The notes under the pieces: model-generated
What the model was told of the DNA's origin: nothing
What the model saw: the letters and a program-made list of their open reading frames with translations, nothing else
Database searches by the model: none
Virus record (IMG/VR): IMGVR_UViG_2595698832_000001
Coordinates: 118,834-182,833 of that record
Strand: one strand, 5' to 3'
DNA: 64,000 bases
Source of the DNA: a virus
Lineage: Duplodnaviria; Caudoviricetes
Shown here: one piece after another, positions 13,818-58,296 of the stretch
How positions within the stretch are numbered: position 1 is the first letter of the stretch
Layout: each line of letters begins with the position of its first letter
Program-made: the position numbers and the translations under genes

Positions 13818-16800
13818 GTGTTTAAAAGTATAGCTAAGAACTTAGTACCAGAAAATTACAAATCTAATAAATTTATTATGGACGTCCTTGACGTTTTTGT
13901 AGATTATATCTATGATAATTCAAGCCTAGCGATTGACATCAATAATTTATATAATTCTAAAAATGAAGTTCTATATGAAGAAATTATTAAAACATATGCT
14001 GCAAACTTTTATAAGACTATAACCGATGGTTCAAAAAATCATAAACTTGCAGAAGCTGTTAGAAAAGCACACAAAAAATATGGTTTTGATTTTAGTGAAA
14101 CGCAATTAGATATAAATGTAATACACTTATTATCACAAGAACAATTAGAATTATTTAAAAACTTTCAACAATCTAAAGGAACATTAAGATCTATTGAGTT
14201 TATATATCGTATTATAGAACAATTAAATATTGAAAGTTTTGTATTAGAAACCGATGGTCAATTAACAATAGAGCCCGGTGAAAATATATTTGAATACCGC
14301 GTTTACGGATCTATGTTACCAGAAATATTTGAAGCATTTGTTAAACCATTAGCTCACCCAGTGGGTTGGACTTACTTATTTACAAGAACTTACGTTCTTA
14401 AATTCGAAGATTATTTCTTATGCAAAGAAGTTTACGATGTAAATGTTTTTAGAGTAACTTGTGAAGATTCTGATTGTGAAGATAATTTTAAAACAAATAC
14501 TGGATATCTTTTTGAAACTGACATTAATAATAATATAATATATGAAAATAATAAACCAAAAATAGTATAAAGCTGATGGAAATCCAGTATTTAATGTTAC
14601 AAGATTTGGCGTCAATTACCCAGAATTAACATTAGAATCTGAATTAAAATTAGTTAAAGATCCTACTATTAGAACTATTGAAAAATCCAGCATAAAAGGT
14701 AATGACAAATTAATTGTATATTTTGAATCTGGTGAAAGATTAGAACAAAATTCAAACCCTAAGAATTTAATATTATATTATTATAAAGGTATTAACTCAT
14801 TAAATCAAGAAATTAAAAAAGATTATACTGATTTCTTAAGCAAATGTGCTTTGGAACTTAATTATGTTAGAAGAGTTGTAACCACAGTTAAAGACAAATA
14901 TCAATTTCAAGTAGATTTTGGTTTAGCTAGCACTACTGGTAAATTTGCAGCTATTGGCGCTGGTAATATGTATCTAGGTTCAGATACTTGGGTTCTTGGT
15001 AAAAATAGAATCAATGCAAATACACCAGTAACTTATGGAACTAGAGTTCGTAATAAAGTTTTACAAACTTCTGACTTTAAAGCATTATATAAGAAAAATG
15101 ATAATTCTATTAGACAGGTATTTGATAAAGTTTATTCTGGTTTTGATGATCACGTAAAATCAAGTACTTGTAATTTTATTTTAGAATCTGACAATTTATA
15201 TCATTATAGATTATATAATCCAAATGCAATATTTTTTGAATTAATTAATACTTACGGGTATAGAGTTCGCGCTAAAATAAAATATAACGAAGATTCATTA
15301 GAAGTTATAGCTGAAGATGAACTTAAAAATACACAATTATTATATATAGATAAAACATTATTCAGTAAATACAATTCACAAGTTTACAAAGATTTTAAAG
15401 AATCTATGAATAAGCCTTTAGGTCAATATTATACAGTACCTTAAAAAAGGTGTTAATTACTTGAATATTGTAGATTCTAATGGTTATATAGTTAAAGGTA
15501 ATTATAGGCTTGTAGATTCTGAATATAGGCTTTATTTAAATATAAAAGATCCTGTAACTATTCAATTTATTGATGATACTTATGAATACGATTCAAGACC
15601 ATTTCAAATTATTGATGCCGAATTAAGTTATAATAAAGATTCTAAATTATATGAATATACTACACCAGAAAAAGAATACTATTTTGTCAGCGTAGCTAAT
15701 CGTATTAGCAATGTAGATTTGGACATTATGTATATTGCTGGTTTACAAAAAGGTTTTAAAATAACTTCAAGTACTGCTACAAAAAATAAGAGTATATGTT
15801 ATAGATAATACTTCTAAAAGATTTCCGATAACTATACTGAGTGCAACTAATGAAACTATACAAGCAAAAGAAAATAGTATATTCTTAGGTTTAATCAATG
15901 CTAATAACCAATACGTTGAAGGACAAATAGTTTACGATTCTGAAGGTAAATTAGCAACATTAGATTGTAATGCAAAAACAAATAATTTAAGTTTATTATA
16001 CTTAGATTATTCTGCAAGTATTAAAAATCCAATAACTATTAAATCTACAACATTTGATATTGCTGGAAATTTTTCAGAAGTTAATGATAAAAGAGGTAAA
16101 TTCCTTTATAATTTTAGAATCGAAAATATTATGATTGTTAATATATTCGATAAAAATAATCAAAGAATACAATTAGACTATGATATTGAAAATACTGGGG
16201 TATCTTTTTATACTGATACAAATGAAGCTATTACAATACAATACTTTGATAATATAGATGAAGGTATACCAAGAACATATACAATAGATGCTGAATTTAA
16301 ATTAGATACTAGTTACATTAATTATAACGCAAAAATATTTAAATATAAAGATATATTATTAAATATGGATACTAGTACAAACAAATATGTTTATAAGCAC
16401 AACGAAATGAAAACTTATCCTTTAGTTGTTATGGATACTGATGGAAATGTTTTAGACGTTGAAATAGGTATTTTAACTACTGGATTTAAAATATCTTATT
16501 CTGAAGGTATAAAAGTAAGAATATATTATTTAGATGATACTAAAAATAGGGCTGATGTTACTTATAATAAAGCTGGAGACCTGGACCCCACAAAATTATT
16601 ATATGCTATTAAAAATGGTGTCATAGTTAAACAAGATATCAATACAGTGTCTACTGAAGATTTTTATTCATTTTCAAGATTAAAAACTCTTAAAATTAAG
16701 AAAGCTGATTTAAAAGCTGTGGAAAGTAACGACTCAGATTCAAAACTAGGTAAATATAAATTTATTAAAAATATTGAATATGGTTTGCCAGTTATGGCCG

Positions 16801-22579: not shown

Positions 22580-23005
22580 TTATGCATTTAAGATTTTATA
22601 TATTTTTAATACTGTATGTGATTTTCGAGTATGTGATTCATTCGAAGTATTCGCACACTCAATGCAATTCAAACAATCTATAGAAGCTCGACATCTCTTG
22701 CAATCCACACATTCGTGACAATCCAAACAATAAACGCATTTATGGCATTTAAAGCAACCTTGGCATTTATAACAATCAATACAATCAATACAAGATTTAC
22801 AATCAATACAATCTTTAGAAACGCGGCATTTATAACAATCAATACAATCAATACATTTATAACAATCAATACAATTGAAACAATTTAAACAATCTTTACA
22901 AACTACTAAAGACTCAGAAGCTTCTTTCGCTTGTTCTTCAGTATACGTAGAAGAATCCCATTTATTGTTATTAGAATCTGTGTAATAGCCATCTATTAAT
23001 TGCAT
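22580..23005 (-). CDS. Cysteine-rich (CxxCxx)n repeat protein, short paralog
   Basis: MQLIDGYYTDSNNNKWD...EQAKEASESLV matches 124..978; own TATAAT and AAGGAG. Confidence 0.85.
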   Translation of the reverse strand: MQLIDGYYTDSNNNKWDSSTYTEEQAKEASESLVVCKDCLNCFNCIDCYKCIDCIDCYKCRVSKDCIDCKSCIDCIDCYKCQGCFKCHKCVYCLDCHECVDCKRCRASIDCLNCIECANTSNESHTRKSHTVLKIYKILNA

Positions 23006-23063
23006 TTTAACTCCTTTTTATGTTTGATTTTTTAATTATAATATATTTGGACTAATTTTAAAC

Positions 23064-25344
23064 TTAAACTAAAGCTCGGAATCTTTCGAATCCTGTATTT
23101 TAATATTCATTAATTTCAAAATATCACCACCTATTTTTCTTAATTCAATAGGTATCTTACTGAAATTAAAACTTAATAAAATATCAAAAGATTTTTTATA
23201 GTCACATAAAGTCATATTGTTAAAAACGTCTACTTTTAGACAAGCTTTACCAATATGGCTTAATTCTTGATAATCTTTGCCAGGTGGTACGTGAAAATGA
23301 TATAAAAGATTTTTAACAGTTCCCCTCTTATATTCAACATCTCTGTCTTTAGAATCATCAGTATGCTCCTTAGGTCTTTTTTTCTACAGTAGTTTTTAAT
23401 AAATCATAATTAATACAAGCATTATATTTTTTGTTCATAACATAGTAAATTATCTTTTTGGAAAATCTTGCTCTGCCTAACATTTGTAAAGAACTAATAA
23501 CGTCTGTAGAACTCGCACTATCATAATGAAAATGTATATCAACATCATTCAGAATGTTGACTCCCACAGTTAACACTGGAGTGTAAATAAAGACATCACA
23601 ATCTAGTGCTTCTTTAGACCTAATTTTATCATATATAATATTTTTTGATATTGAGCTAGTTTCTTTATTAAAAATAATTATTTTTTTATTTAGTATATAA
23701 CACATTTCTTTAATAATATCAACAACTTTTATACTAGTTGTAGAAATAGTTATTTTTTTATTAGAATCTAAAGCATTTTTAATTAATGTATAAAAGGTAT
23801 TGCTGTCATTGCAACTATAAAGTTCTGTATTATTTTTTGTATAGCTAACAACATTTAAAGGTTTAGTAAACATATTGTCCACAATGTATTTACTTAAAAA
23901 TGCATCAGCTACAACAACTTTTTTATTTAAAGCAGTATAGAATTTTATTAAGTTCTCTGTTTTACTATTCAATGCAGATCTTGTATGCATTAATAAACTC
24001 ATAAACTCATCGAGTATAATTAGGTCGTAGTCATCTAAATCAAAATGTCTAAAACTGTCGTATTGACAAATTAAGGATTTACCTTTTGATCTAACTATTT
24101 TTGGTTTTTTGGTTTTTGTGACAAAACTAGTATTAGCATTATTTAAATTACTAACGTTGTCAACATTACTATAACTTTCAATAAGTCTGATAGCTTCTTC
24201 ACCACTTATGTTGTTAGAATTCTTAGAATCCTTGGCTTTAATAGCATCAGTATAATCTTTATAATATAAAAACTTCTTATATTTTCTTTTGTAATCTTCT
24301 GCTAACGTAACTCTATTGGTTATAATTGCAACCTTAAAATCTCTCTCTAGTGCTGCTTCTATAATTCTATCTATAAAAGTTGTTTTACCCGAACCCATAG
24401 GAGCTCTCAAAGTCAGAGCACCATTATGTTTAAACAAAAAAAGCTTCTACAATTGAATCTAATTCAGACTTAATTTCTGTAAAGTTTCTATCAACTACAA
24501 TATCTGCTTTATAATCTATATAAGGAGTTATATCAAAAGTAGGTTCATATTTTATAGCTTCTTTCCAAATATTTACTGACATATAACTTTCAGTATGATT
24601 CATAATATATGGATTATTTGGGTACCAAATATAATTTTCAGAATCTTTTGTGTATTTTATAGAACCATTAGCATTGATATCTACTAAGATAAAACCCAGG
24701 TTCTTAAAAATTGTTTTGCATATTTCAGTAGTTTCTTTAGAGGTAATATTAAATTTACAATCTAAATCTATGTTATTATAGTAATCTGTAACATTCGTAC
24801 CTATAGGCATTAACATAGAACCGTTTGGGTTATCCAAGAGTATATTATCTTTATTCAAAGGCGCTGTATAATAAGTTATTCTTAATGTATCAGTAGTATA
24901 TTTACCATACTCAGAAAGTTCTTTTTGAATTTTAGCTTGCAAAACTTTTAGTTCTTTTAAGCTCATTGGAGCTGTTTTAATAATACCTTTTAAATTAAAA
25001 TTATTAACACCATCATAAGATCTGGATTGACCGATAGTGCATTGCGTGCTCTTAAAATAGTCTAATGCCATATTTTTATTAAACTCTGATTTGCATTCAA
25101 AATCAAATAATAAATGATCAAATGTTTTAATTATATGAGGTTCTAAATCTGTTTTTAATCTTCTGGATTTGCCAGGTCCTTTTAAGTCTAAGGTAATATT
25201 TAAACAAAAATTATTAACAAGTAGTTGAAATGCTTGGTAAGTCGTTTGGACTTCAATTGTTTCAAAAATAAAAGAATTGTCATCGTATGGTGACTTAGCA
25301 AACTTTTCATTTTTACTTGCAGTTCCAAAGATTGTTATTTTCAT
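23064..25344 (-). CDS. Origin-binding-protein-like (UL9-type) SF2 helicase with an N-terminal extension; frameshifts near 24435 and 23380
   Basis: APMGSGKT, ILDEF, TVGVN and QMLGRAR; the 24430..25344 and 23370..24437 ORFs abut at a homopolymer. Confidence 0.7.
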
Positions 25345-25480
25345 ATTTTATTACCTTAGGTGTTATATATGATTATAATATAGCTGAACTAAAAAGATTC
25401 TTAAAGCCTAAAGATCTTAGCTAAGATCTTTAGACTCAATTTCATTATTAGTAGTGGTTTTAGTGGTTTTAGCCTTCGGC

Positions 25481-26281
25481 TTAGATTCTACAGCTTTTTT
25501 TAGTAGTTTTAGTAGTGCTGGCTTTCTTAGCATCTTTTTTAGCTTGTTCTAACTCAATTTCAGCCCTTTGTAAATCAATAGAATCAAGGTCACCTTCTTT
25601 AATAATATATTCAAGAAACTCTATTCTATAATCTAAATTATCTATGTACTCACAATAAGCATCTGCTTTCATACTTAAACCAAAAACATTAATATGAGTA
25701 GCAATACCACGTTTACACATTTCATAAGCATCGAACCAAAACTCAACACCATCTATTAATAATTCAATTTCTTTCTTGGTAAGATATGGATTTAATAATG
25801 ACTTCATATATTCATTCCAATACTTATTAGAAAAATCAAATTGCGTTTTAACATCCGAATGTTTACCAGAAACTCCAAAACTTACTGAATGGAACATAAT
25901 ACTTGAGTTCTCATAAATTACACGTGAGTTACCAATTAAGAACATCATAGCACCACAAGAATATCCAAATGGGTTTAATACTGTTGTTACATTACCATAG
26001 AACTTTGTTCTAATTATATTTGTAAATCTATTAAGTTCATCAGCAAAACCACCCACACTGGCTATAAAGATTTGTATAGAATCACCTTCATTAGCGTCAT
26101 TAAGATCAGCAAAAATATTTTCTAATTCACCTTCTTCGTGATCAAATGAATTGATATTTAAAGTATAATTAGTATAATTAAAACTTTTTTTGTACAACGA
26201 ATGCCTTGTATCTTTTGTAGATATAATATCCAATTCAGAATCCTCCATTTTTGTTTTATTGTTTGCAGCTTCATATCTCAT
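25481..26281 (-). CDS. ClpP/crotonase-like serine protease family protein
   Basis: IASVGG, GYSCG (Ser), IMFH (His) and EFWFDA; basic tail probably extends past a frameshift. Confidence 0.72.
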   Translation of the reverse strand: MRYEAANNKTKMEDSELDIISTKDTRHSLYKKSFNYTNYTLNINSFDHEEGELENIFADLNDANEGDSIQIFIASVGGFADELNRFTNIIRTKFYGNVTTVLNPFGYSCGAMMFLIGNSRVIYENSSIMFHSVSFGVSGKHSDVKTQFDFSNKYWNEYMKSLLNPYLTKKEIELLIDGVEFWFDAYEMCKRGIATHINVFGLSMKADAYCEYIDNLDYRIEFLEYIIKEGDLDSIDLQRAEIELEQAKKDAKKASTTKTTKKSCRI

Positions 26282-26292
26282 TTTAACTCCTC

Positions 26293-27623
26293 TTAAGCTT
26301 TAGTTAATATGTTCTTAATAGAATCTAAAGATTCGACATAATTTTTAAATGTATCCAGATTTTTTTAATGTTTCAAATTTAGCTTTGATTTCTTTAGCAT
26401 TTTGTACTAATTTTTCAAAAGTTTCGTTTGTAAACGAATGTATTGGTAACTTAAGCAAATAATCATAACTATTCTCAAACTTAATAAACCCTTTACTTTC
26501 AAGATCCAATTCAATATCCTTTTTAGATCTTTTCATAATTTGTAACTCTGAATCAATGATTAATTTAACAAATCTTAATTTTTGAATATTAATATTTAAA
26601 TCATTTTCAAGAACTTTTAAATCAAAATCTTTTTGTTTAACCAAAAATCTTTTTCTAACATCTATGTAATAATCAATTATAGATTCAATATTTTCAAAAG
26701 TTCTGACTTGATTATTTTCATCCAAAGCATTATATATTTCTGTTTCTCTTTTAGATAATTTTAATATATCGATAGCTTTCTCTTTAGAGATATTATCGAA
26801 AAATATAACTTCGAATTTAAATTCTTGGTTTCTTTGGTCTGAAAAGTCTTTATAATTTTTTAATCTTTTTAGTCTCTACAAGATTATCTAATATTTCGAG
26901 ATATTTTGTATACTCGATAAATGGTGGTATTTCTGTTATAATTGCTTTATTTTTATTGACTTCAACAACACCTATAAAGTTCCATTGTGTATTATTAGAA
27001 CTGGTATCTTCTACTAATTCAACAGTCCCTTTAAAACCTGCAATATACGGCTTTAAATCAACTTTATTACCTGTCTTAATATATTTTATTACTGAATCCA
27101 AAGATCTTGGTAAAATATTCTGTTTAAAACCACTAGCAAGACCATTCATTGAACCATTTAAAACTAGTATAGGCAAACTTGGAACATAAAATACTGGTTC
27201 TATTTCTGAACCTTCAAAATTCTGAGAAATCAAGACATCTTTAATATCAAATAAATCATTAATATATTTTTTATTTTTAACATAAACATATCTTGGTGCT
27301 GCTGGCTCATTAATAAACCTCGAACCAAAATTACCTTTACCTTCAAGCAATGGAATATTATTAGAACCAGTATAGCTTGCAGCCATATTTTGAATAACAC
27401 CTGAACACGAACCGTGCAAGTATTGTGTATAACTTTGAACCATATTATCAAATATACTAACTTTAGTTTCTGTATTTAATTTTTTGTCTAATGCTGTGTT
27501 AATGATTTTTCTGCTTGAATTTTTTAAACCATCAATAGAACTAGCTATCATTCTTAAAGTACTATAACAAGAATAATTAGTTAATTCATTTAGAAAATAA
27601 TCTTGAACACTTTTGTGAACCAT
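26293..27623 (-). CDS. gp52: DNA topoisomerase II medium subunit (gp52/GyrA-like); frameshifts near 26855 and 26362
   Basis: IDGLKNSSRK, YLHG, GNFGSR, AAPRY (catalytic Tyr) and ITEIP. Confidence 0.9.
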
Positions 27624-29052: not shown

Positions 29053-29166
29053 TGTAGAATTATAATATATTTGAACTTAATTCTTGCTGAAATTTTAGAA
29101 CTTTAGTTTAAAATTAAAATATAATATTTTATAATATTTTATAATATTTTATAGTAGTTTAGTTGG

Positions 29167-30585
29167 TTATATATTGTAAGTAAATCTTTTTATTTCATAA
29201 CCTTCAGGTTCATAAGATTTTGTTATTCTAGCATTTATTTGTTTCTTAAAAAAACCATTGTGATCAGCAATATCATATATATTAACAATATCTTTAGAAT
29301 CGTGAAGTCTTAATAATCTACCAATACTTTGAGTTATTGTGACATAACTTTTGAGTGGACTAGCAAGCACTAAATTATGTAAATTCTTAATATTTACTCC
29401 GGTTGAAGTTGTCGCATAATTAGCAACTACGATAGCATTGTTTACTGAATCTATTAATTGTCTAATAGTTTCCCTTTGTGAACCTTCTATCATTCCGTTA
29501 ATAAAAAATACATTATTTCTTTGTTGAAACGCCAAATCTTTATAAGTCTTTTTATCGTAGTTTAATCCTCTGGATTTCAAGAACTTATAAAATAAAGTTA
29601 GACCGTGTTCAGTATGAGAAAATAATACTAAAGTGTTACCTTTGCTGACTACAGTATCGCCTATTCTTTGAATTAAATTATTTCTTGGGTCGTATTCTTT
29701 TAATTGTTTCAATTGGCTTGAATATTCACCTTCAAAATTAAATTTATATTTAAGATCTATTATATTAATAATAGCATTTGTAGCCAGACCTCTATCTATT
29801 AAACCTCTGGGTGTAATATATGTTCTTGGTAAACCAAAAATACTTATTAATCTCATAGCATCTATTTCATTATCTGGAATAGTCCCTGTCAAACCTATCT
29901 TATACTTAGCATTAATACACTTATTGCAAATATCAAATATTTGATCTGCTTTGGCTGTATGTGCTTCATCTACAATAATAAAATCTAAATCATTTAAGGC
30001 TTCTTTAAAGTTTTTAACAGATTGCCAAGTACTAATTGTTAATGGTTTATCAAAAGATTTAATATTATTTTCACCACCTATTAATCTTGTTTCTATATCC
30101 AATTTATAATTTATTAAATCATTATTAAATTGATTTGTTAGTGAAATGTTAGGAACAAGTATCAAACCTTTTAATTTTTTTAATATTAGAATCTTAGCAA
30201 TTAATCCAATAATGACGCTTTTACCAGCACCTGTGGCTGCTCTAATGAATAACTTATGAAATTGCATAGCATCTTTTATAGCTTGTTTTTGATAATCATA
30301 AACTGGAAATGGTTCTAAATGTTTTATAATTATTTCCAATTGCGAATCTAATTTTTCATTAATTTCTGGTTTAGTTGTTATACCCAGGTATTCTAAAACA
30401 CCGTTTGGTACAATTTGTTGGTTGTTGAAATCTTTATAGAAGTATTCATAAGCTAATTTTGGATTCATTTGAGCCCATATATTATAACGAATATCTTTCT
30501 TAAATATTAATTTAGCTTTTTGGTCATCAGTTAAAGATATTAAACTAAATGATTCGTTTAATTTTTTAAAATTATTTTTTAACAT
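29167..30585 (-). CDS. uvsW: UvsW-like SF2 DNA helicase
   Basis: YQKQA, ATGAGKS, DEAH, GLTGT and QSIGRLLR. Confidence 0.92.
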   Translation of the reverse strand: MLKNNFKKLNESFSLISLTDDQKAKLIFKKDIRYNIWAQMNPKLAYEYFYKDFNNQQIVPNGVLEYLGITTKPEINEKLDSQLEIIIKHLEPFPVYDYQKQAIKDAMQFHKLFIRAATGAGKSVIIGLIAKILILKKLKGLILVPNISLTNQFNNDLINYKLDIETRLIGGENNIKSFDKPLTISTWQSVKNFKEALNDLDFIIVDEAHTAKADQIFDICNKCINAKYKIGLTGTIPDNEIDAMRLISIFGLPRTYITPRGLIDRGLATNAIINIIDLKYKFNFEGEYSSQLKQLKEYDPRNNLIQRIGDTVVSKGNTLVLFSHTEHGLTLFYKFLKSRGLNYDKKTYKDLAFQQRNNVFFINGMIEGSQRETIRQLIDSVNNAIVVANYATTSTGVNIKNLHNLVLASPLKSYVTITQSIGRLLRLHDSKDIVNIYDIADHNGFFKKQINARITKSYEPEGYEIKRFTYNI

Positions 30586-31271
30586 TTAGGTTTACCTTTA
30601 AAATCTGGACATAATCCTGCATAAGGACACCAAGGACATAATTTATTTGGTTTGCTATTCCAAGTATTAGATTCAATAGAATTTTCAATAGATTTTATTT
30701 GATTATTAAGATTATCTTGCCAATAAATTGCAGAATCTTGAGACAAACTTAAAGTATTTTCTAAAAGATGTTCAACATAAACATATCTTATTTTTATTTC
30801 ATTTAGTTTAAGTCTTTTAAATATATATAAACTATATAAAATTAATTGTGTAAAATCTTGATAAGATGGTTCTTTATATTTACCTGTTTTATAATCTATA
30901 AGCTCTAATCCATTTTCAGTCGTATTAATTCTATCAATATAGCCTACAAAAATAGCAGTATCTTTGCTACAAGGTTCATAATTAGAATCTAAGAATAATT
31001 CGTATTCCCTTAAAGATTTTCTGGATAGTATTTCTTTTCCTAATTCAGAATCAATAAATCTTAATGCAATATTTTGTATTTCTGGATCTTTTGAATTAAG
31101 AACTTCATTGTATTTTTCAGTGTTATGAAACTCAAGTATTTCGTGTATATCAGAACCTTTTTTTAATGCTGGGTTCTTTTGAGTTTCTGGAACCTTTTCA
31201 ATATATCTATAATAATATTGTTTTGGGCATTTTTTATATGTATCTATTTTCGAAAAACTATATCTTGTCAT
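30579..31271 (-). CDS. Cas4-like / RecB-family PD-(D/E)xK exonuclease with Fe-S Cys motif
   Basis: N-terminal CP, GYIDRI, DYKTG, QLILY and C-terminal CPWCPYAGLC. Confidence 0.85.
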   Translation of the reverse strand: MTRYSFSKIDTYKKCPKQYYYRYIEKVPETQKNPALKKGSDIHEILEFHNTEKYNEVLNSKDPEIQNIALRFIDSELGKEILSRKSLREYELFLDSNYEPCSKDTAIFVGYIDRINTTENGLELIDYKTGKYKEPSYQDFTQLILYSLYIFKRLKLNEIKIRYVYVEHLLENTLSLSQDSAIYWQDNLNNQIKSIENSIESNTWNSKPNKLCPWCPYAGLCPDFKGKPKC

Positions 31272-31957
31272 TTAGAACCTTTGTTTACATTTTACTAGTT
31301 ATATAATAAACACCTTTAATATAAGGCTTGTGAGAATCCCATTCAAACAAGCAATTATCAGATTTAATTAGAACTTTAATTTTAGATTCTTTATGTAGAT
31401 CTTTCAGAACTTGTATCAAGAAATCGGCATCAACACCTTCATCTACGAACATTTTATGAAGAATTTCTTCTTCTATATTAGTTACTTTTAAGATTTTTTA
31501 GAACTTGTTTTTTAATAAAGCTTTTTGAATCCATTTTTACTCCTTTAAATAATCAAAAACAAATGAAGTAATTCTTTGAAACTTGAATTGAATTTAAGCT
31601 AGCAACCTTACTTGATTCTAATTCAGTAGCTTTTAATAATTTTAAAATACTAGGGTCAAATGCAAAAAAATCTTTTTGAATTGTTCGATTTCTATGTGTT
31701 TTAAAATCATAACTTGTTTTATAACCAATATTATATTTTTCACAATATGCAACATTAATTTTAAAATTTTTAATCATATAATTCAATGGTAATTTATTAC
31801 TCCAATCTATTCTGGGTTCATTAAAAATAATTTTCATATTCTTAGTTAAATTAGGAAAGTCTCTGTGAACAAACACACAATTACCTATTCTTACTAAATG
31901 TTTATTAGTAACAGACTCTGGAAATTCTGTATACCATTTTGAAATATTAGTCATACT

Positions 31958-32115
31958 TACCAACTAAACCATTATAAAATATTATAAAGAACTATAAAAT
32001 TCTTTACATTTTTAATAGTTTTTCTTGCTTCATAGTTCTTCTCAGACTTTATCTGAGTTTTCTTAGAACTCCACAAGCTTTGATTTTTTAAAGTGGTTCC
32101 AGCTGTTGTATCCGT
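31958..32115 (-). ncRNA. Putative TnpB omegaRNA scaffold overlapping the tnpB 3' end
   Basis: GCTTGTGGAG...TGAAGCAAGAA motif typical of tnpB 3' ends, with hairpin CTCAGA-TAAAG-TCTGAG. Confidence 0.6.
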
Positions 32116-33289
32116 AGCCACTATTTTATTTAATCCAGTATTTAAAATATTGATACTAGCATTTAAATCTCTATCAATAGAAAACCCACATTCAGAACAA
32201 TGGTAGGTTCGTTCAGAAAGTTTTAAACTTTCTTTAATACATCCACAATTTGAACAAGTTTTAGATGATGGATAATAAGTATCAATCTTAATTAAACAGC
32301 CTTGGTTTTCGGCTACTTTATAACTTATTTTTTCAATAAAAGAACTCCAGCTAACATCAGATATTGCTTTTGAAAGCCTTTTGTTCTTAACCATATTCTT
32401 GACTTTTAAAGTCTCAAGACAAATAGTTCTATACTTATCGGCTATCTCTCTTGAAACTTTATGTTGATAGTCATTTCTTTGATTTTTAACTTTTTTATGT
32501 AAGCTTTGAAATTTTTAATCTTTGTTTTTCTCTATTATTAGAACCCTTTTGTTTTCTACTTAGACTTCTTTGAGAAATCTTAAGTTTTCTTAAAGATTTT
32601 TCAAGAAATCTTTTATTTTCGAATACAACCCCATCACTACAAATAGCAAAGTCTTTGATACCAAGGTCTATACCGACACTTTCTGATGTTTCTTTAGATT
32701 CTATATCTGTATAGAAGGTAAAAGAAATATAGTACTTATTGTCTTCTCTACTTATTGTAAATCCGGTAACTTTTTCAAACTCATACTTGATTTTATGTCT
32801 TTTGAATCTTATTCTAAGATCATCTTCTGCATAATCTGATGCTCGAGGTTTTCTTAAAATAATATAATCTCCTTCTATCTTTGCACCTTTATAACAGTTA
32901 AAACTCTGAGTACTTGATTTCTTAGCTTTGAATTTAGGATAATTAAGAGTTATATAAAAGTTATTAAATGCTCTACTAAGATTCCTCATTATAGCCTGAG
33001 CATAGTCAGCAGGAAATAAAGCTAGATAGCTATATTCTTCTTTTAGTCTCGGAAGTGAATTGTTTAGATCAATCTCTGTAGGAATTTTTGAAACTATATT
33101 ACCTTTATTCTTTCCGTTTTGAATTTCATAAGTTCCAAACTTGGAGTCTTTGATATTATAGAGTGAGATGTTATAAATGGCTCTAGATAATCCAAAGAAT
33201 GATTCAAGTATCTCTTTTTGTTTAGAATTTGGTTTTAATACAAATTTAGCACTTCTGATTGTGCTATAAATATTATCAGTTTTATTCAT
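31972..33289 (-). CDS. tnpB: TnpB RNA-guided endonuclease; one extra base near 32500
   Basis: N-terminal HTH, RuvC GIDLG / ICLETL / DRDLNA all intact, zinc finger CSNC...CSEC. Confidence 0.92.
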
Positions 33290-33611
33290 AACTCTTACTT
33301 ATGTTTAAAATTAGAGATTTAAAAGAACTGCAATTCTTTTACTTCTCGTCTATTATATTTATACTTCAAAACTTTTAATTTCTGAAAATTCTAAAATAAT
33401 TTCTATATTTATTTAGTTTAATATACTTTTAAGCTTAGAAATATATTTAATTTATCCGCTATTTCTGCAGTTAACATATAATCTTTGGTTACGAAGTTCA
33501 TTTTAACCCCAAATAAAATAAGCTGGGTATGCTATCATCATTACTACGGCTACAACTATGTAAACTAAGTCAAATGTAAATCTATTATCACCTAATTTTG
33601 ATTTAAAGTTT

Positions 33612-33674
33612 TTCATTTAATCTCCTTTATCTTTTGATGAAATAATTATAATATAAAATAACTTAAAAGTTTCT
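33612..33674 (-). promoter_or_regulatory. Duplicated promoter-RBS cassette
   Basis: Near-identical to 39641-39703. Confidence 0.75.
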
Positions 33675-33745
33675 TAAATAATCTAAATACTAAATATCGA
33701 AGTTAATTAAGATAATAAATAACCTAAAAATACATAGAGGCCAAA

Positions 33746-34660
33746 ATGTATAAACTATTATTAGAAAATTCTCTTAAGGAGACTACAAACTTAATTAGCG
33801 AAGGTATAGATGCAGATTTTTACCAAGTTATGTTAGGTGATATCTTAAAAGATAAAATCAAATCGTTTATAGGTCATCATATTGCTGAAGTTCAACCTAT
33901 GATGCAACCATCTGGATATGTTTTCGCAAGACAAGAAACTCAAGATACATTTAAAATTATTAAAAAACAAATTGATGTGGATACTAATAAATCTATTATC
34001 AAAATATCACAGGAAGCTTGGGAAGATTTATTAAATTTAAGTAATCTTAATAAAGCCGGAAATGAACAAACACCAGAATTATTCATTAACTGGGTCAAGT
34101 CTTCTGCAGCACACAAAGAAACTGAAAAAATTATAAATCTTATTAAAGAAAATGCAGTTGAATCAGAAGGTATTACGTTAGATGATAACAACGATTCTAA
34201 ACAAAATGCCGAAACAAACTTATTTCATATATCTAAAAAGGTAAATGATTTAGTTATTAAAATGAATTCACCTAATTTTAGAACATACGATAGTTTTTGT
34301 ATACTTCCGCAAACTGGTGTAGGTGGTATATTATCATTAAGTTTTACTTATTCAAGAATAGATGACTCAACAGATGAAAATAGAGCGAATGATTATTTCT
34401 TAGGTAAGATTAATAATACAAGATATTATTTAAATCCAAACCCTGACGATAATAATGCTTATGTGGGTTTAAAATCTCATAAAGAAAAGGGTGTTAATTC
34501 GTTGATTTATAGCCCATATTGTATGAACTTAACAACTGCTTATAATTATAAATCCGGCGAAAGAACTGTAGGTATATTTACAAGAAATGCATATACAATA
34601 CACCCTTTACATTCTGCAACTACTCCGATGTTATATAAGTTTGCAATTACGGAAGCTTAA
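33746..34660 (+). CDS. Capsid-fold protein (gp23/gp24 head vertex-like)
   Basis: IAEVQPMMQPSGYVFA and LIYSPY motifs; ATAAATA late-type promoter upstream. Confidence 0.75.
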   Translation: MYKLLLENSLKETTNLISEGIDADFYQVMLGDILKDKIKSFIGHHIAEVQPMMQPSGYVFARQETQDTFKIIKKQIDVDTNKSIIKISQEAWEDLLNLSNLNKAGNEQTPELFINWVKSSAAHKETEKIINLIKENAVESEGITLDDNNDSKQNAETNLFHISKKVNDLVIKMNSPNFRTYDSFCILPQTGVGGILSLSFTYSRIDDSTDENRANDYFLGKINNTRYYLNPNPDDNNAYVGLKSHKEKGVNSLIYSPYCMNLTTAYNYKSGERTVGIFTRNAYTIHPLHSATTPMLYKFAITEA

Positions 34661-35877: not shown

Positions 35878-36012
35878 TATCTCCTTTTTTATTTCTGTTA
35901 TTGTATAATAATAATCTTAAAATAAGATTAAAATTATACATCATTGCTTATGAATTTGGTTTTTATACAAGAAAAAATATTTTAATGTCTAAATCTAATT
36001 TTTTATTTTCTT

Positions 36013-36198
36013 CTAAAAATTAGTTTCACTTAATATTTCTATCTTAATATTTTCTGATTTTTCAATACCCTCATTTATAATAGATTTGATATATTCTCTT
36101 TCTTTTCTTATTTCTTCTAATTTCTCATCCGTATATTCATTTTCTTTTTCCTTCAAAACTTTTTCAAAAATTTCTTGTATTTTTGATTTTTTAATCAT
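36013..36198 (-). CDS. Hypothetical protein
   Basis: TATAAT and GAGG RBS; starts MIKKSKIQE. Confidence 0.5.
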   Translation of the reverse strand: MIKKSKIQEIFEKVLKEKENEYTDEKLEEIRKEREYIKSIINEGIEKSENIKIEILSETNF

Positions 36199-36946
36199 TT
36201 TACCTCTATTATATAATAATCTTAAATAACTGATTTTAAGCTTATTTAAAACAAGTTTATTTTACGATTTTATATTATTTATTCGTTTTAAACATTTTTT
36301 AAGCTTTGGTGCTAATTCTTGACTGATATTTGCATAATGAGCAAACACCATAGTATTAAAATTGAAACCAAAGGTATTATTGCAAACAAATAAACACTAT
36401 TAACTTTTTTACCATTAATATAATAAAAACCAACAACACTAATAATAAAAAGAAAAAATAATAATAAATGAACAAATCAATAAATTTAAATTATTTAAAA
36501 TCATTAAAATCCCGTATTGTGTATCAAACTAAATAACTCACAGAATTAGTAAATAATTTATAATTTTTATCGTACATTTCTTCAGCAAGAATTACTTGAT
36601 TATTAATATAAGAACAATAAAAATAACCTACTATACTGCGCTACTTTTTTATTATTTGTAAATTCTACATAAATAAACAAATAATTACCATCGGTATCTA
36701 TTCCAATAATTTTTGCAGTTATAAATTCTTTAACTATACTTTTTGTATTCAATGATTTAACAATATCATCGAAATTTTGACTCAAGTCTATACTATTCAA
36801 TAAGTCAGTCAATTCATTACTAAAATCTTTAAAATCTGAATCCATTTTATCTCCTTGTAATATTATATAATATAGAATCTTAAAAATCAATTACAAATTA
36901 TATTTTCTAATATATTCATCAATTAAGTCTGGTGTTATATCTGAAT

Positions 36947-36995
36947 AATTATTAGAATTATTAGAATTATTAGAATTATTAGAATTATTAGAATT
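36947..36995. repeat. 9-bp microsatellite (AATTATTAG)x5
   Basis: Five exact tandem copies. Confidence 0.9.
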
Positions 36996-37060
36996 TTTTT
37001 AGATTCTCAAAGAATTCAAGTAATTCAATATCTTTTATGGTACCAATCCAACTTAACAAA

Positions 37061-38071
37061 TCAATATTTTTCATAGTCTTCTACTCCGTAAAAATTCAAA
37101 CAATCTAATATTTTTATTGTTTCTTCATCATAATCAATTTGAGGTGTTATACAATTAAAATTGATATTCTTTAAGTATTTAACATTGTATTTATTAAAAT
37201 AATTCAAACACATACCAACATTACAACTTTTGAATTTACAAACTTGATAATCTTTTAACTTTAGAACTTCTTCTACAGTCAAAGTTTTTCTTGAACAATT
37301 TTCAATGATTCTATCTGGGTAAACGTGAAGTCTCAAACCATTGCAGACCATACCGAGATAATTTTGACTCGCAAACTCAGATTCATTCATATATTTCTTA
37401 GTTCCTTGAGAAATCGTTACGTAGTCTCTATCTGCATTAAGGTCAACGCCTGCTACATTTTTATTTGGATTACTAAAACCAAACCCTGAAATATGAGTAC
37501 AAATAATATTAGTAAATCCTTGAGATTCTAAGAAATCTTTAACATTTTGAGTTCTTTCTATTAAATCTGGTTTTTTATGGTTAAAAAATAATTTAACTTC
37601 TTTTGGTAAATCTATGTCTAAGAAATATTTAAGTCTTTCAATATATTGATTAGAATTAATTTGAGAAGCGTGATAAGTTGTAACTAAATCTAGGTTTCTA
37701 TATTCTTTTAGACGTTTATAATGATCTTTTATATATAATAGATTTGTTAAAATTGTTACGTCTTTTAGATCCTTAAATAAGTCTAAATAATCATAAAGAT
37801 AATCACACATTAGTGGTTCACCACCACATAAAACTGCGGATTTTAATCTAGGAAATATAGCTTTAACCAAATTAAAACATTTTAAATCTGCTTCGCTTTT
37901 AGTATTTTTAGCAGCATTAAAATCTGTAAAACCTGAATTACAACAATATTCACAACTAAAACAACATTTATCGGTTGTCATTATCGCAGCTCGAATACCT
38001 TCAAACTCTAATGTTCCATTTAGTAGTTTTTCATATGAGCATTCAGAACCCGAGAAGTCTATTTTATTCAT
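37061..38071 (-). CDS. Radical SAM enzyme
   Basis: CCFSCEYC, GGEP, LTNL and extra C-terminal cysteines. Confidence 0.88.
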   Translation of the reverse strand: MNKIDFSGSECSYEKLLNGTLEFEGIRAAIMTTDKCCFSCEYCCNSGFTDFNAAKNTKSEADLKCFNLVKAIFPRLKSAVLCGGEPLMCDYLYDYLDLFKDLKDVTILTNLLYIKDHYKRLKEYRNLDLVTTYHASQINSNQYIERLKYFLDIDLPKEVKLFFNHKKPDLIERTQNVKDFLESQGFTNIICTHISGFGFSNPNKNVAGVDLNADRDYVTISQGTKKYMNESEFASQNYLGMVCNGLRLHVYPDRIIENCSRKTLTVEEVLKLKDYQVCKFKSCNVGMCLNYFNKYNVKYLKNINFNCITPQIDYDEETIKILDCLNFYGVEDYEKY

Positions 38072-57298: not shown

Positions 57299-58296
57299 AT
57301 AAACTCCTTTAAATCTAATAAATTATTCGATTTTATATATTCTATAATAATATTACTTAAATTTGTATTAATTCTAAGTTCGTTTTCCCAAATTATTATA
57401 ATTTTATAGCCATTATCTAAAGCGTGATTAATTTTTCTATTATCTGCTTCCCATATTTCCTCAGCAGTCAATGTCTTGTCAAATGGATTGGGATTGTCGT
57501 GGCTATTAAATATTTTAGGATTTGCGTGAAATACATCACCATTAAATTCTATTATTAATTTTAATTCTTTGATATAACAATCATAAAAATACGGAGTTCC
57601 GTTAGAATTTAATACTATTTCTCTTGTTTTTGGTTCATAATAAAAAGTATAATTATTTCCTAATTTGGATTCCAATTCTTCAAATAATTTTGTAGCCATT
57701 TTTGAATAACCTATACACTTTTTGTTATTTAAAAAATTAAGCCACTTTTCATTACCTAGGTATTCACCATATTTTTTAATAAGATTTTCACGAGTGATTG
57801 CTTTACTTGCGTTGATGTTATAATATTTCTGTTCGCCTACAATTTCACCATATTTTTCAACAAAGTATTCTTTTGTATTTGTGTATGCCTGTCTATGTCT
57901 ATAATCCTCCCATTTTTTATTACCTAGGTCTTCACCGTAACGCATTATTAAATTTTTCTTAGTCACCGCTCTGGATTGATTATAACAATCTACTTCATAA
58001 TCACTCATACCCAGCACATTCATTTTATATTCTTTTGTATTTGTATATGCTTGTCTATTACAATAACTTGTCCATTTTTTTAGCGCTCCGGTTTTACCGT
58101 ATAGCAGCAAACATTTATATTTCGTTATACCACCCTTAGTGTATTTGCGTAAACGTCGGTATCGCGCGTATAAATTTTTAGGTCTGTATTCGCTAAACGT
58201 GAGTAAATATTTGTACATAGTTGTATAAGGCAATTTACCATTTTTAACTTCAGATTTTAAAAATTGTTTGAAATCGTTAAAATATGATTCAGTCAT
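57295..58296 (-). CDS. Free-standing Vsr-like (EDxHD-type) homing endonuclease between the PolB halves
   Basis: YFYD...LIIEFNGDVFHANP...D..K...GYKIIIIWE; KYG repeats; overlaps both flanking ORFs. Confidence 0.85.
   Translation of the reverse strand: MTESYFNDFKQFLKSEVKNGKLPYTTMYKYLLTFSEYRPKNLYARYRRLRKYTKGGITKYKCLLLYGKTGALKKWTSYCNRQAYTNTKEYKMNVLGMSDYEVDCYNQSRAVTKKNLIMRYGEDLGNKKWEDYRHRQAYTNTKEYFVEKYGEIVGEQKYYNINASKAITRENLIKKYGEYLGNEKWLNFLNNKKCIGYSKMATKLFEELESKLGNNYTFYYEPKTREIVLNSNGTPYFYDCYIKELKLIIEFNGDVFHANPKIFNSHDNPNPFDKTLTAEEIWEADNRKINHALDNGYKIIIIWENELRINTNLSNIIIEYIKSNNLLDLKEFI

Follow-up and report, generated by a model that had tools for sequence, protein, structure and literature searches.

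TnpB-driven transposon homing has been described by Meers et al. (bioRxiv version PMC10055086; see also PMC10690162), and a 2026 review (PMC13565253) proposes, as a theoretical possibility, the copying of elements into coinfected phages under the name 'transposon non-restorative homing'. For a group of Campylobacter phages, Timms et al. (PMC2853527) described the insertion sequences ISCaje1-4 in 2010 as members of the IS200/IS605 family, with four of the five insertions encoding TnpB only, and raised the idea of biased inheritance in mixed infection for protein homing endonucleases that these phages encode. As an idea, homing into co-infecting phages is not new and has already appeared in print. 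Here we describe a TnpB element within a 64,000-nucleotide stretch of phage DNA (hereafter the window), which corresponds to bases 118834-182833 of the 182,833-bp IMG/VR virus record IMGVR_UViG_2595698832_000001. The element occupies 1,484 bp of the minus strand (31959-33442), inside a conserved gene that is uninterrupted in close relatives. We consider it, with a probability of about 0.6, to be a non-autonomous TnpB-omegaRNA insertion element of the ISCaje2/ISCaje3 group of Firehammervirus phages, with a complete nuclease and guide-RNA scaffold. Both the kind of element and its proposed mechanism are already known, and the main value of the locus is as a tractable natural test pair. Two near-identical phages, with and without the insertion, permit a direct test of TnpB-driven spread into co-infecting genomes, and the same pair permits asking whether an RNA-guided nuclease acts on DNA in which G is fully replaced. 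The phages with the empty allele are isolates with Campylobacter jejuni as the recorded host.

Positions 31000-34000 of the window matched solely Campylobacter phages of the genus Firehammervirus (the CP220 group). The flanks were 98.6-98.9% identical to F379, CJLB-12, CJLB-13 and CJLB-14 and 94-96% identical to CP220, CPt10, CP20, IBB_35, WX1 and CC_R7; the matches to all of these relatives covered only about half of the query, the central 1.5 kb being missing. Two tnpB-like open reading frames (ORFs) lie on the minus strand, with a 20-codon start (33501-33442) on one side and a 136-codon ORF (31963-31553) on the other. The original prediction, made from the letters of the window, was that removal of 31958-33441 would rejoin these flanking pieces into one gene, with TA shared by both junctions. 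When relatives were searched for the empty allele, exactly this junction was found: the 50-mer produced by the excision (25 flanking bases from each side) is contiguous in F379 and CJLB-14. In the CP220 and CPt10 records the gene is annotated as intact, with a helix-turn-helix (HTH) motif, MLTAEIADKLNISMTNISKWYT, that spans the predicted junction exactly. Contigs from four of four sequencing runs (four studies) likewise jumped from 31957 to 33442, a step of 1484 bases with 2 ambiguous bases, and TA was indeed common to both junctions. Contiguity was seen directly for F379 and CJLB-14 and was read from the annotation for CP220 and CPt10; elsewhere it was taken from two-piece matches. The gene has 154 codons in relatives (F379_052, CPt10_1551) and is divided here into a 5' part (33443-33501, minus strand; about 20 codons, MNFVTKDYMLTAEIADKLNI) and a 3' part (31553-31958, minus strand).

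The insertion is real, precise and so far confined to this genome; it probably entered its target recently, with no bases lost or duplicated. In principle the same appearance could arise from a chimeric join or from a minority variant of a mixed lysate: the assembly has many indel errors, and the junction was present in no public run. The sequences join, however, exactly at the terminus of the family's right end and at a single target position, with no base lost or gained, a pattern unlike a chance misjoin, and we regard an assembly artefact as very unlikely.

The limits of the element were set by the right-end consensus of its relatives. Similarity stops at a constant terminus, ..GTTTAGTTG[G/A]T, in 20 of 20 copies, with the next base varying, and the element thus ends at 31959; because TA is common to both junctions, it starts at 33442. 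The element first placed at 31958-33441 therefore stood, with each end shifted by one base, and tnpB proved to be its only gene, as had been claimed. Its DNA was 81.5-83.3% identical, over 91-100% of the element, to ISCaje3 (CP220), ISCaje2 (CPt10 and CP20) and unnamed copies in IBB_35, CC_R7 and CJLB-14, and it is the sole full copy in its own genome. With ISCaje3 of CP220 and ISCaje2 of CPt10 it shares the phage genus, the tnpB family, the right end and the RNA scaffold (79-80% amino-acid identity over the first part of TnpB; about 82% DNA identity over 96-100% of the element). It differs from them in its insertion site, which lies within a gene, and in lacking the IS607-like left end and tnpA remnant that ISCaje2/3 carry. 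Its identity to ISCaje2 and ISCaje3 also lies below the 95% DNA identity given by Timms et al. as the criterion for sameness (PMC2853527), so we rejected its assignment to either insertion sequence; as judged by these alignments, it is a new, separate member of their group. The limits annotated for ISCaje2/3 in 2010, from which the published target ATTTT derives (PMC2853527), disagree with those obtained from the 20 copies compared here and are unsupported by this larger set.

Scans of IMG/VR, metagenomes and genome contigs with the left-end pattern and the first part of TnpB recovered close relatives in CP220 and CPt10 only, all others being at most 34% identical. A restriction of the group to phages is not claimable, as a larger protein collection contained many close relatives whose DNA context was lacking. 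The CC_R7 record held 14 matches to the element (loci L029-L046): three full copies, one of which lies within a serine tnpA gene, a copy with an internal deletion, and about ten right-end-anchored fragments or derivatives of 150-770 bp that resemble miniature inverted-repeat transposable elements (MITEs).

The tnpB gene is present on the minus strand as two overlapping frames. Part 1 (32495-33289; 264 codons to a frameshift stop) encodes an N-terminal HTH_OrfB domain and RuvC-I (GIDLGIKD), and part 2 (31972-32511; an open frame of 179 codons) encodes RuvC-II (LETL), a zinc ribbon and RuvC-III (DRDLNA). Pfam matches beyond the cut-offs were obtained for HTH_OrfB_IS605 (PF12323, 1.3e-06) and OrfB_IS605 (PF01385, 1.8e-13) in part 1 and for Cas12f1-like TNB (PF07282, 3.9e-22) in part 2. 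Both halves aligned end to end with the solved ISDra2 TnpB (structures 8bf8, 8exa and 8h1j; E 2.6e-11 and 5.2e-26), part 1 with residues 2-248 and part 2 with residues 248-380, the two abutting at 248. An intact 402-aa relative was covered in the same manner, by part 1 over residues 1-263 (98% identical) and by part 2 over residues 263-402 (88%). GIDLG of part 1 aligned with GVDLG of a solved nuclease, and LETL and DRDLNA of part 2 with VETL and NRDINA of LaTranC, in keeping with the RuvC D/E/D first read from the letters; the catalytic D, E and D lie in these aligned motifs.

A protein search listed 618 relatives at E<=1e-20; at least 120 of them, the best 120, were 79% or more identical, and nearly all of these were 400-434 aa long. 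The ratio of non-synonymous to synonymous substitution rates (dN/dS) was 0.11-0.17 among five intact relatives (10 pairs), 0.10-0.12 for part 1 of the window copy (5 pairs) and 0.15-0.24 for part 2 (5 pairs), so that 20 of 20 comparisons fell within 0.10-0.24. The gene is under purifying selection, and these low ratios, together with the many near-full-length relatives, indicate that TnpB has been kept by selection in the phage lineage. Two length classes, of about 402 and about 430 aa, were apparent among the protein relatives. In the window copy the usual tnpB stop codon TAA reads CAA (32083-32085, minus strand), as it does in five other copies among the 18 aligned, and because of this change the tnpB frame runs about 36 codons further, through the RNA scaffold.

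The two parts of tnpB are separated by an extra A at 32500 (minus strand; AAGCTT[A]CATAAAAAAG) that shifts the frame. This base was absent from five of five related copies and from the contig of one sequencing run (X1), and we think it probably a sequencing or assembly artefact, a view that rests on comparison with the rest of the assembly. Of 50 F379 genes in a 45-kb stretch, 26 kept one frame across 95% or more of their length when matched to this genome, and 24 were broken; the genes for a topoisomerase, a 757-aa helicase, an endolysin and FolE each fell into two or three frames that were 97-100% identical. An alignment of 41.5 kb to F379 contained 83 one-base indels, and in 57 cases the extra base was in this genome. 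Twenty-five lengthened a run, and 13 placed the base of a run 1-3 nt beside a homopolymer of at least 5; all 13 of these displaced insertions fell in this genome. Displaced insertions beside homopolymers are typical of flow-based sequencing. The insertion at 32500 has the same form as the 13, and the tnpB frameshift is probably an artefact for that reason. Compared with CP220 and F379, a second tnpB in this genome, of the ISCaje1 type, is likewise longer by a single base (CTAG[A]CGAAAAAG). Genome-wide, the assembly differs from F379 by about 1.4-2 one-base indels in each kb, for example in the topoisomerase and helicase genes at about 23000-27600 of the window.

At its right end the element carries an omegaRNA-like scaffold of 163 nt (31959-32121, minus strand), which overlaps the 3' end of tnpB and has the terminus ..GTTTAGTTGGT. 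The last 162-170 nt of 18 copies aligned well, and RNAalifold gave 47 consensus pairs, 9 of them with compensatory changes; on that structure 98.7% of cells could pair, with 9 pairs and 25 cells altered on both sides. None of 500 shuffles reached either covariation value, and only 0-2 such pairs were left when the partner was slid by 1-3 columns. These controls are indicative rather than a probability, as the structure comes from these same, related sequences. The window copy folded at -39.5 kcal/mol (z -4.0) with all scaffold helices intact, and the shortest right-end fragments in other phages begin exactly at the scaffold. The covariation across the 18 copies supports a structured, omegaRNA-like right end, in agreement with the earlier description of this 3' end.

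The predicted guide, and hence the predicted target in the empty allele, is the 16-nt AAGTATGACTAATATT immediately beyond the right end (31943-31958, minus strand), its length being assumed from ISDra2 (review PMC13565253). The guide had been expected to derive from this flank, and the identity of the flank held up; its start did not, position 31958 (AAGTATGACTAATATT) being one base earlier than proposed. The guide flank was unchanged at 25 of 25 bases in F379, CJLB-14 and CPt10.

An IStron-like arrangement, in which the element would be spliced from the mRNA and the interrupted gene would still function, was considered because the element sits in sense within the gene that it splits, both in this genome and, as an insertion in tnpA, in CC_R7. 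Searching 31400-33700 with cmscan at E<=1 returned no group I intron or other Rfam family, apart from a lone chance match to mir-1, and the left end is separated from the tnpB start by only 153 nt. The element was rejected as an IStron, and splicing of this kind seems extremely unlikely.

Remnants of the right end also occur by themselves. One, of about 30 nt, ends in ..TAGTTTAGTTGGT and follows tandem ATAATATTTT units at 29116-29168 (plus strand) of the window, directly adjoining the stop codon of uvsW, a helicase gene. A solo scaffold, with neither tnpB nor a left end, occupies the same site in two diverged phages (L031, IBB_35 14018-14195; L044, CC_R7 57876-58048), and each resembles the full copy in its own genome rather than the other solo scaffold; in this genome 52 unrelated bases are found there. 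The pattern suggests gene conversion or repeated arrival.

The ends of the element read ATTTCT.. on the left and ..TTGGT on the right. The non-coding left end (33290-33442, minus strand; 153 nt) starts with ATTTCTAAGC and includes a rare motif, CTTAAAAGTATATTAA, at 33418-33433. Left ends vary among relatives: ISCaje2/3 copies and a 340-bp derivative in F379 have the left end and first 19 tnpA codons of the full IS607-type element that this genome carries outside the window, the full copies of CC_R7 have another left end, with a 9-bp hairpin, and the short CC_R7 derivatives have a third. The window copy starts about 60 nt inside the CC_R7 left end, and so is without the 9-bp hairpin; this boundary was found in no other copy. 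Longer relatives have TAT just ahead of the matching internal position, and it is possible that an internal cleavage site was used for the left end of this copy.

Directly 5' of the left end, AAT was found at 8 of 10 junctions representing the two main left-end types and the window, and TAT at the other two, in the window (33443-33445, minus strand) and CP220. The 10 junctions represent 9 sites, as CP220 and CJLB-14 share one; AAT accounts for 4.7% of trinucleotides in this genome (0.047). Six further loci (L039, L040, L042, L043, L037 and L031) were left out as left junctions, with 2-52 bases differing at the junction. The one other clean occupied and empty pair, the CC_R7 copy L030 against this genome, reads ..AAAAT/ATCTT.. 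(the slash marking the junction) with zero duplication. The candidate target-adjacent motif (TAM) of the family is AAT, with TAT in its place here, and the right end ..GGT differs from it. In the ISDra2 system the TAM is TTGAT. ISDra2 resembles the present element in that insertion occurs 3' of a short motif without duplication and in that the guide RNA overlaps the 3' end of the gene and runs into the flank (predicted here); its sequence is distant, and the present RNA has no Rfam family and the phage no Y1 TnpA partner.

The motif TTAAAAGT[AT]T[AC]TTAA, to which the rare left-end motif belongs, occurs four times in 183 kb against 0.05 expected (window 33418-33433, minus strand, and 33662-33677, plus strand; C1:21593 and C1:96294). 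One occurrence is within the left end of the element, and two coincide exactly with the positions of related elements in CPt10 and CC_R7; the motif may serve in phage regulation or mark a favoured landing site. A scan for sigma-70-type promoters gave 20 sites against 14.1 expected and was uninformative.

By analogy with characterised TnpB systems, the 3' extension of the guide RNA would read AAGTATGACTAATATT, which matches the gene as it stands without the insertion. Guided by it, TnpB would cleave this empty allele once the element had been excised, or in a relative infecting the same cell, and the element would then be copied into the cut allele by recombination. Retention or homing by TnpB requires a configuration of this kind: the guide equals the flank, the empty allele is unchanged in relatives and the terminal ..GGT differs from the candidate motif. 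As in published homing models (PMC10055086, PMC13565253), there is an occupied and an empty allele, and the guide is sequence of the empty one; the partners here would be co-infecting virulent phages. The free-standing homing endonucleases of T4-like phages (SegB, SegF and Mob) are comparable in the proposed biased inheritance in mixed infection, but they recognise DNA via protein and sit between genes, not within a transposon-like element. RNA-guided homing into co-infecting phages is plausible by this analogy, and homing is inferred, as are expression and nuclease activity, the choice of TAM and any effect on 7-deazaguanine DNA.

Several observations weigh against an element with a complete, working nuclease and guide. 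In the record as it stands, tnpB is broken, and the read search for this phage found no run that contains the stretch (best share 0.54), so that the case for a sequencing error is indirect. Of 13 phage records spanning the locus and four sequencing runs, none had the insertion, and nothing points to spread. The left end is shortened, and this copy may be unable to move again. The target is preceded by TAT, not by the AAT of the family, and five MITE-like copies of CC_R7 have TAA, GTA or TTA (AAT in 0 of 5), which leaves the reading of the TAM less than clean. The cmscan search of 31400-33700 at E<=1 matched no omegaRNA family. Over the 406 bases on the right-end side, the flank differed at 12 positions from F379 and at 4 from CJLB-14; this gives no convincing co-conversion tract, as the cluster of differences to F379 is much reduced in the comparison with CJLB-14 and falls where the gene is variable. 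No match to the Y1 (HUH) TnpA family, PF01797, was found in any of the five genomes searched (this genome, CC_R7, F379, CP220 and CPt10), whereas the control gave matches in 6 of 14 genomes.

Some of these points, namely the frameshift in the record, the short left end unique among the copies examined, the non-consensus TAT and the single occurrence, would also be expected of a dead relic: one aberrant insertion with a truncated left end and a real tnpB frameshift, neither moving nor cutting, whose only effect is the loss of the first helix of the interrupted gene. The frameshift in the genome's second tnpB and the right-end relics nearby point the same way. Against it, both frameshifts match the error pattern of the assembly, in which an essential topoisomerase, helicase and endolysin are 'broken' alike; neither half of tnpB has other stops or indels, and dN/dS is 0.10-0.24; and the scaffold helices are all intact in the window copy. 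We consider such a relic unlikely.

The claim that the element lacks a transposase stood. The phage itself is not free of transposases: an intact 209-aa serine-recombinase tnpA is present outside the window, in a full IS607-type ISCaje1-like element (C1:36.9-38.9 kb; L016 1240-3285), and a Y1 transposase is absent. CP220, CPt10 and F379 retain only the tnpB of that ISCaje1-like element. An autonomous IS200/IS605 element was rejected for want of a Y1 TnpA. It is conceivable that the serine transposase of this ISCaje1 element mobilised the element, with TA as the 2-bp crossover and TnpB serving for retention only. The intact serine tnpA, the TA common to both junctions and the want of a Y1 transposase in these phages would all fit, as would ISCaje2/3, which have an IS607-like left end and 19 tnpA codons and have moved as a unit to at least four sites. 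The window copy, however, is without the IS607-like left end, and the clean empty site of CC_R7 copy L030 shows no duplicated base. According to a review, IS607 elements terminate in GG and insert at GG (PMC13565253), whereas the copies compared here end in GGT or GAT and sit 3' of AAT. Mobilisation by the serine transposase is possible but doubtful, and membership of the IS607 family itself was rejected, as the element has no tnpA and its ends, ATTTCT../..TTGGT, depart from the rule of GG ends and a GG target.

A TnpB-omegaRNA element in these phages would also meet unusual DNA. Every G in CP220 DNA is reported as 7-amido-7-deazaguanine (100%; bioRxiv 10.1101/2023.04.13.536721), and this genome encodes QueC and also matches FolE of F379; any activity of TnpB would for these reasons have to work on modified DNA. 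That a G-free motif would suit such DNA is speculation. More broadly, we offer as a tentative and rather doubtful proposal that the ISCaje2/3 TnpB-omegaRNA lineage is adapted to 7-amido-7-deazaguanine DNA: it would recognise a G-free motif (AAT/TAT), act as an RNA-guided gene drive between co-infecting Firehammervirus phages, and re-use one constant right end with several unrelated left ends, with target choice set or filtered by TnpB and not by a transposase.

The interrupted gene, a homologue of F379_052, CPt10_1551 and CP220 gp177, encodes a product in PHROG 26757, a group of unknown function. Its Pfam search returned no credible family (DUF2045 was sub-threshold, at 15.9 bits against a cut-off of 25), only five homologues were found, each at least 88% identical, and an AlphaFold2 model was unusable (mean predicted local distance difference test score, pLDDT, 51). 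The sole support for its HTH label is the motif prediction of the depositors in the CPt10 and CP220 records. An in-frame ATG two codons past the junction, in the 3' part, could yield a product without the first helix. Elsewhere in the window, a variable segment of 1.2 kb with small ORFs (35967-37168) lies at the position occupied by ISCaje3 in CP220 and CJLB-14, between flanks that are 99% identical to CJLB-14.

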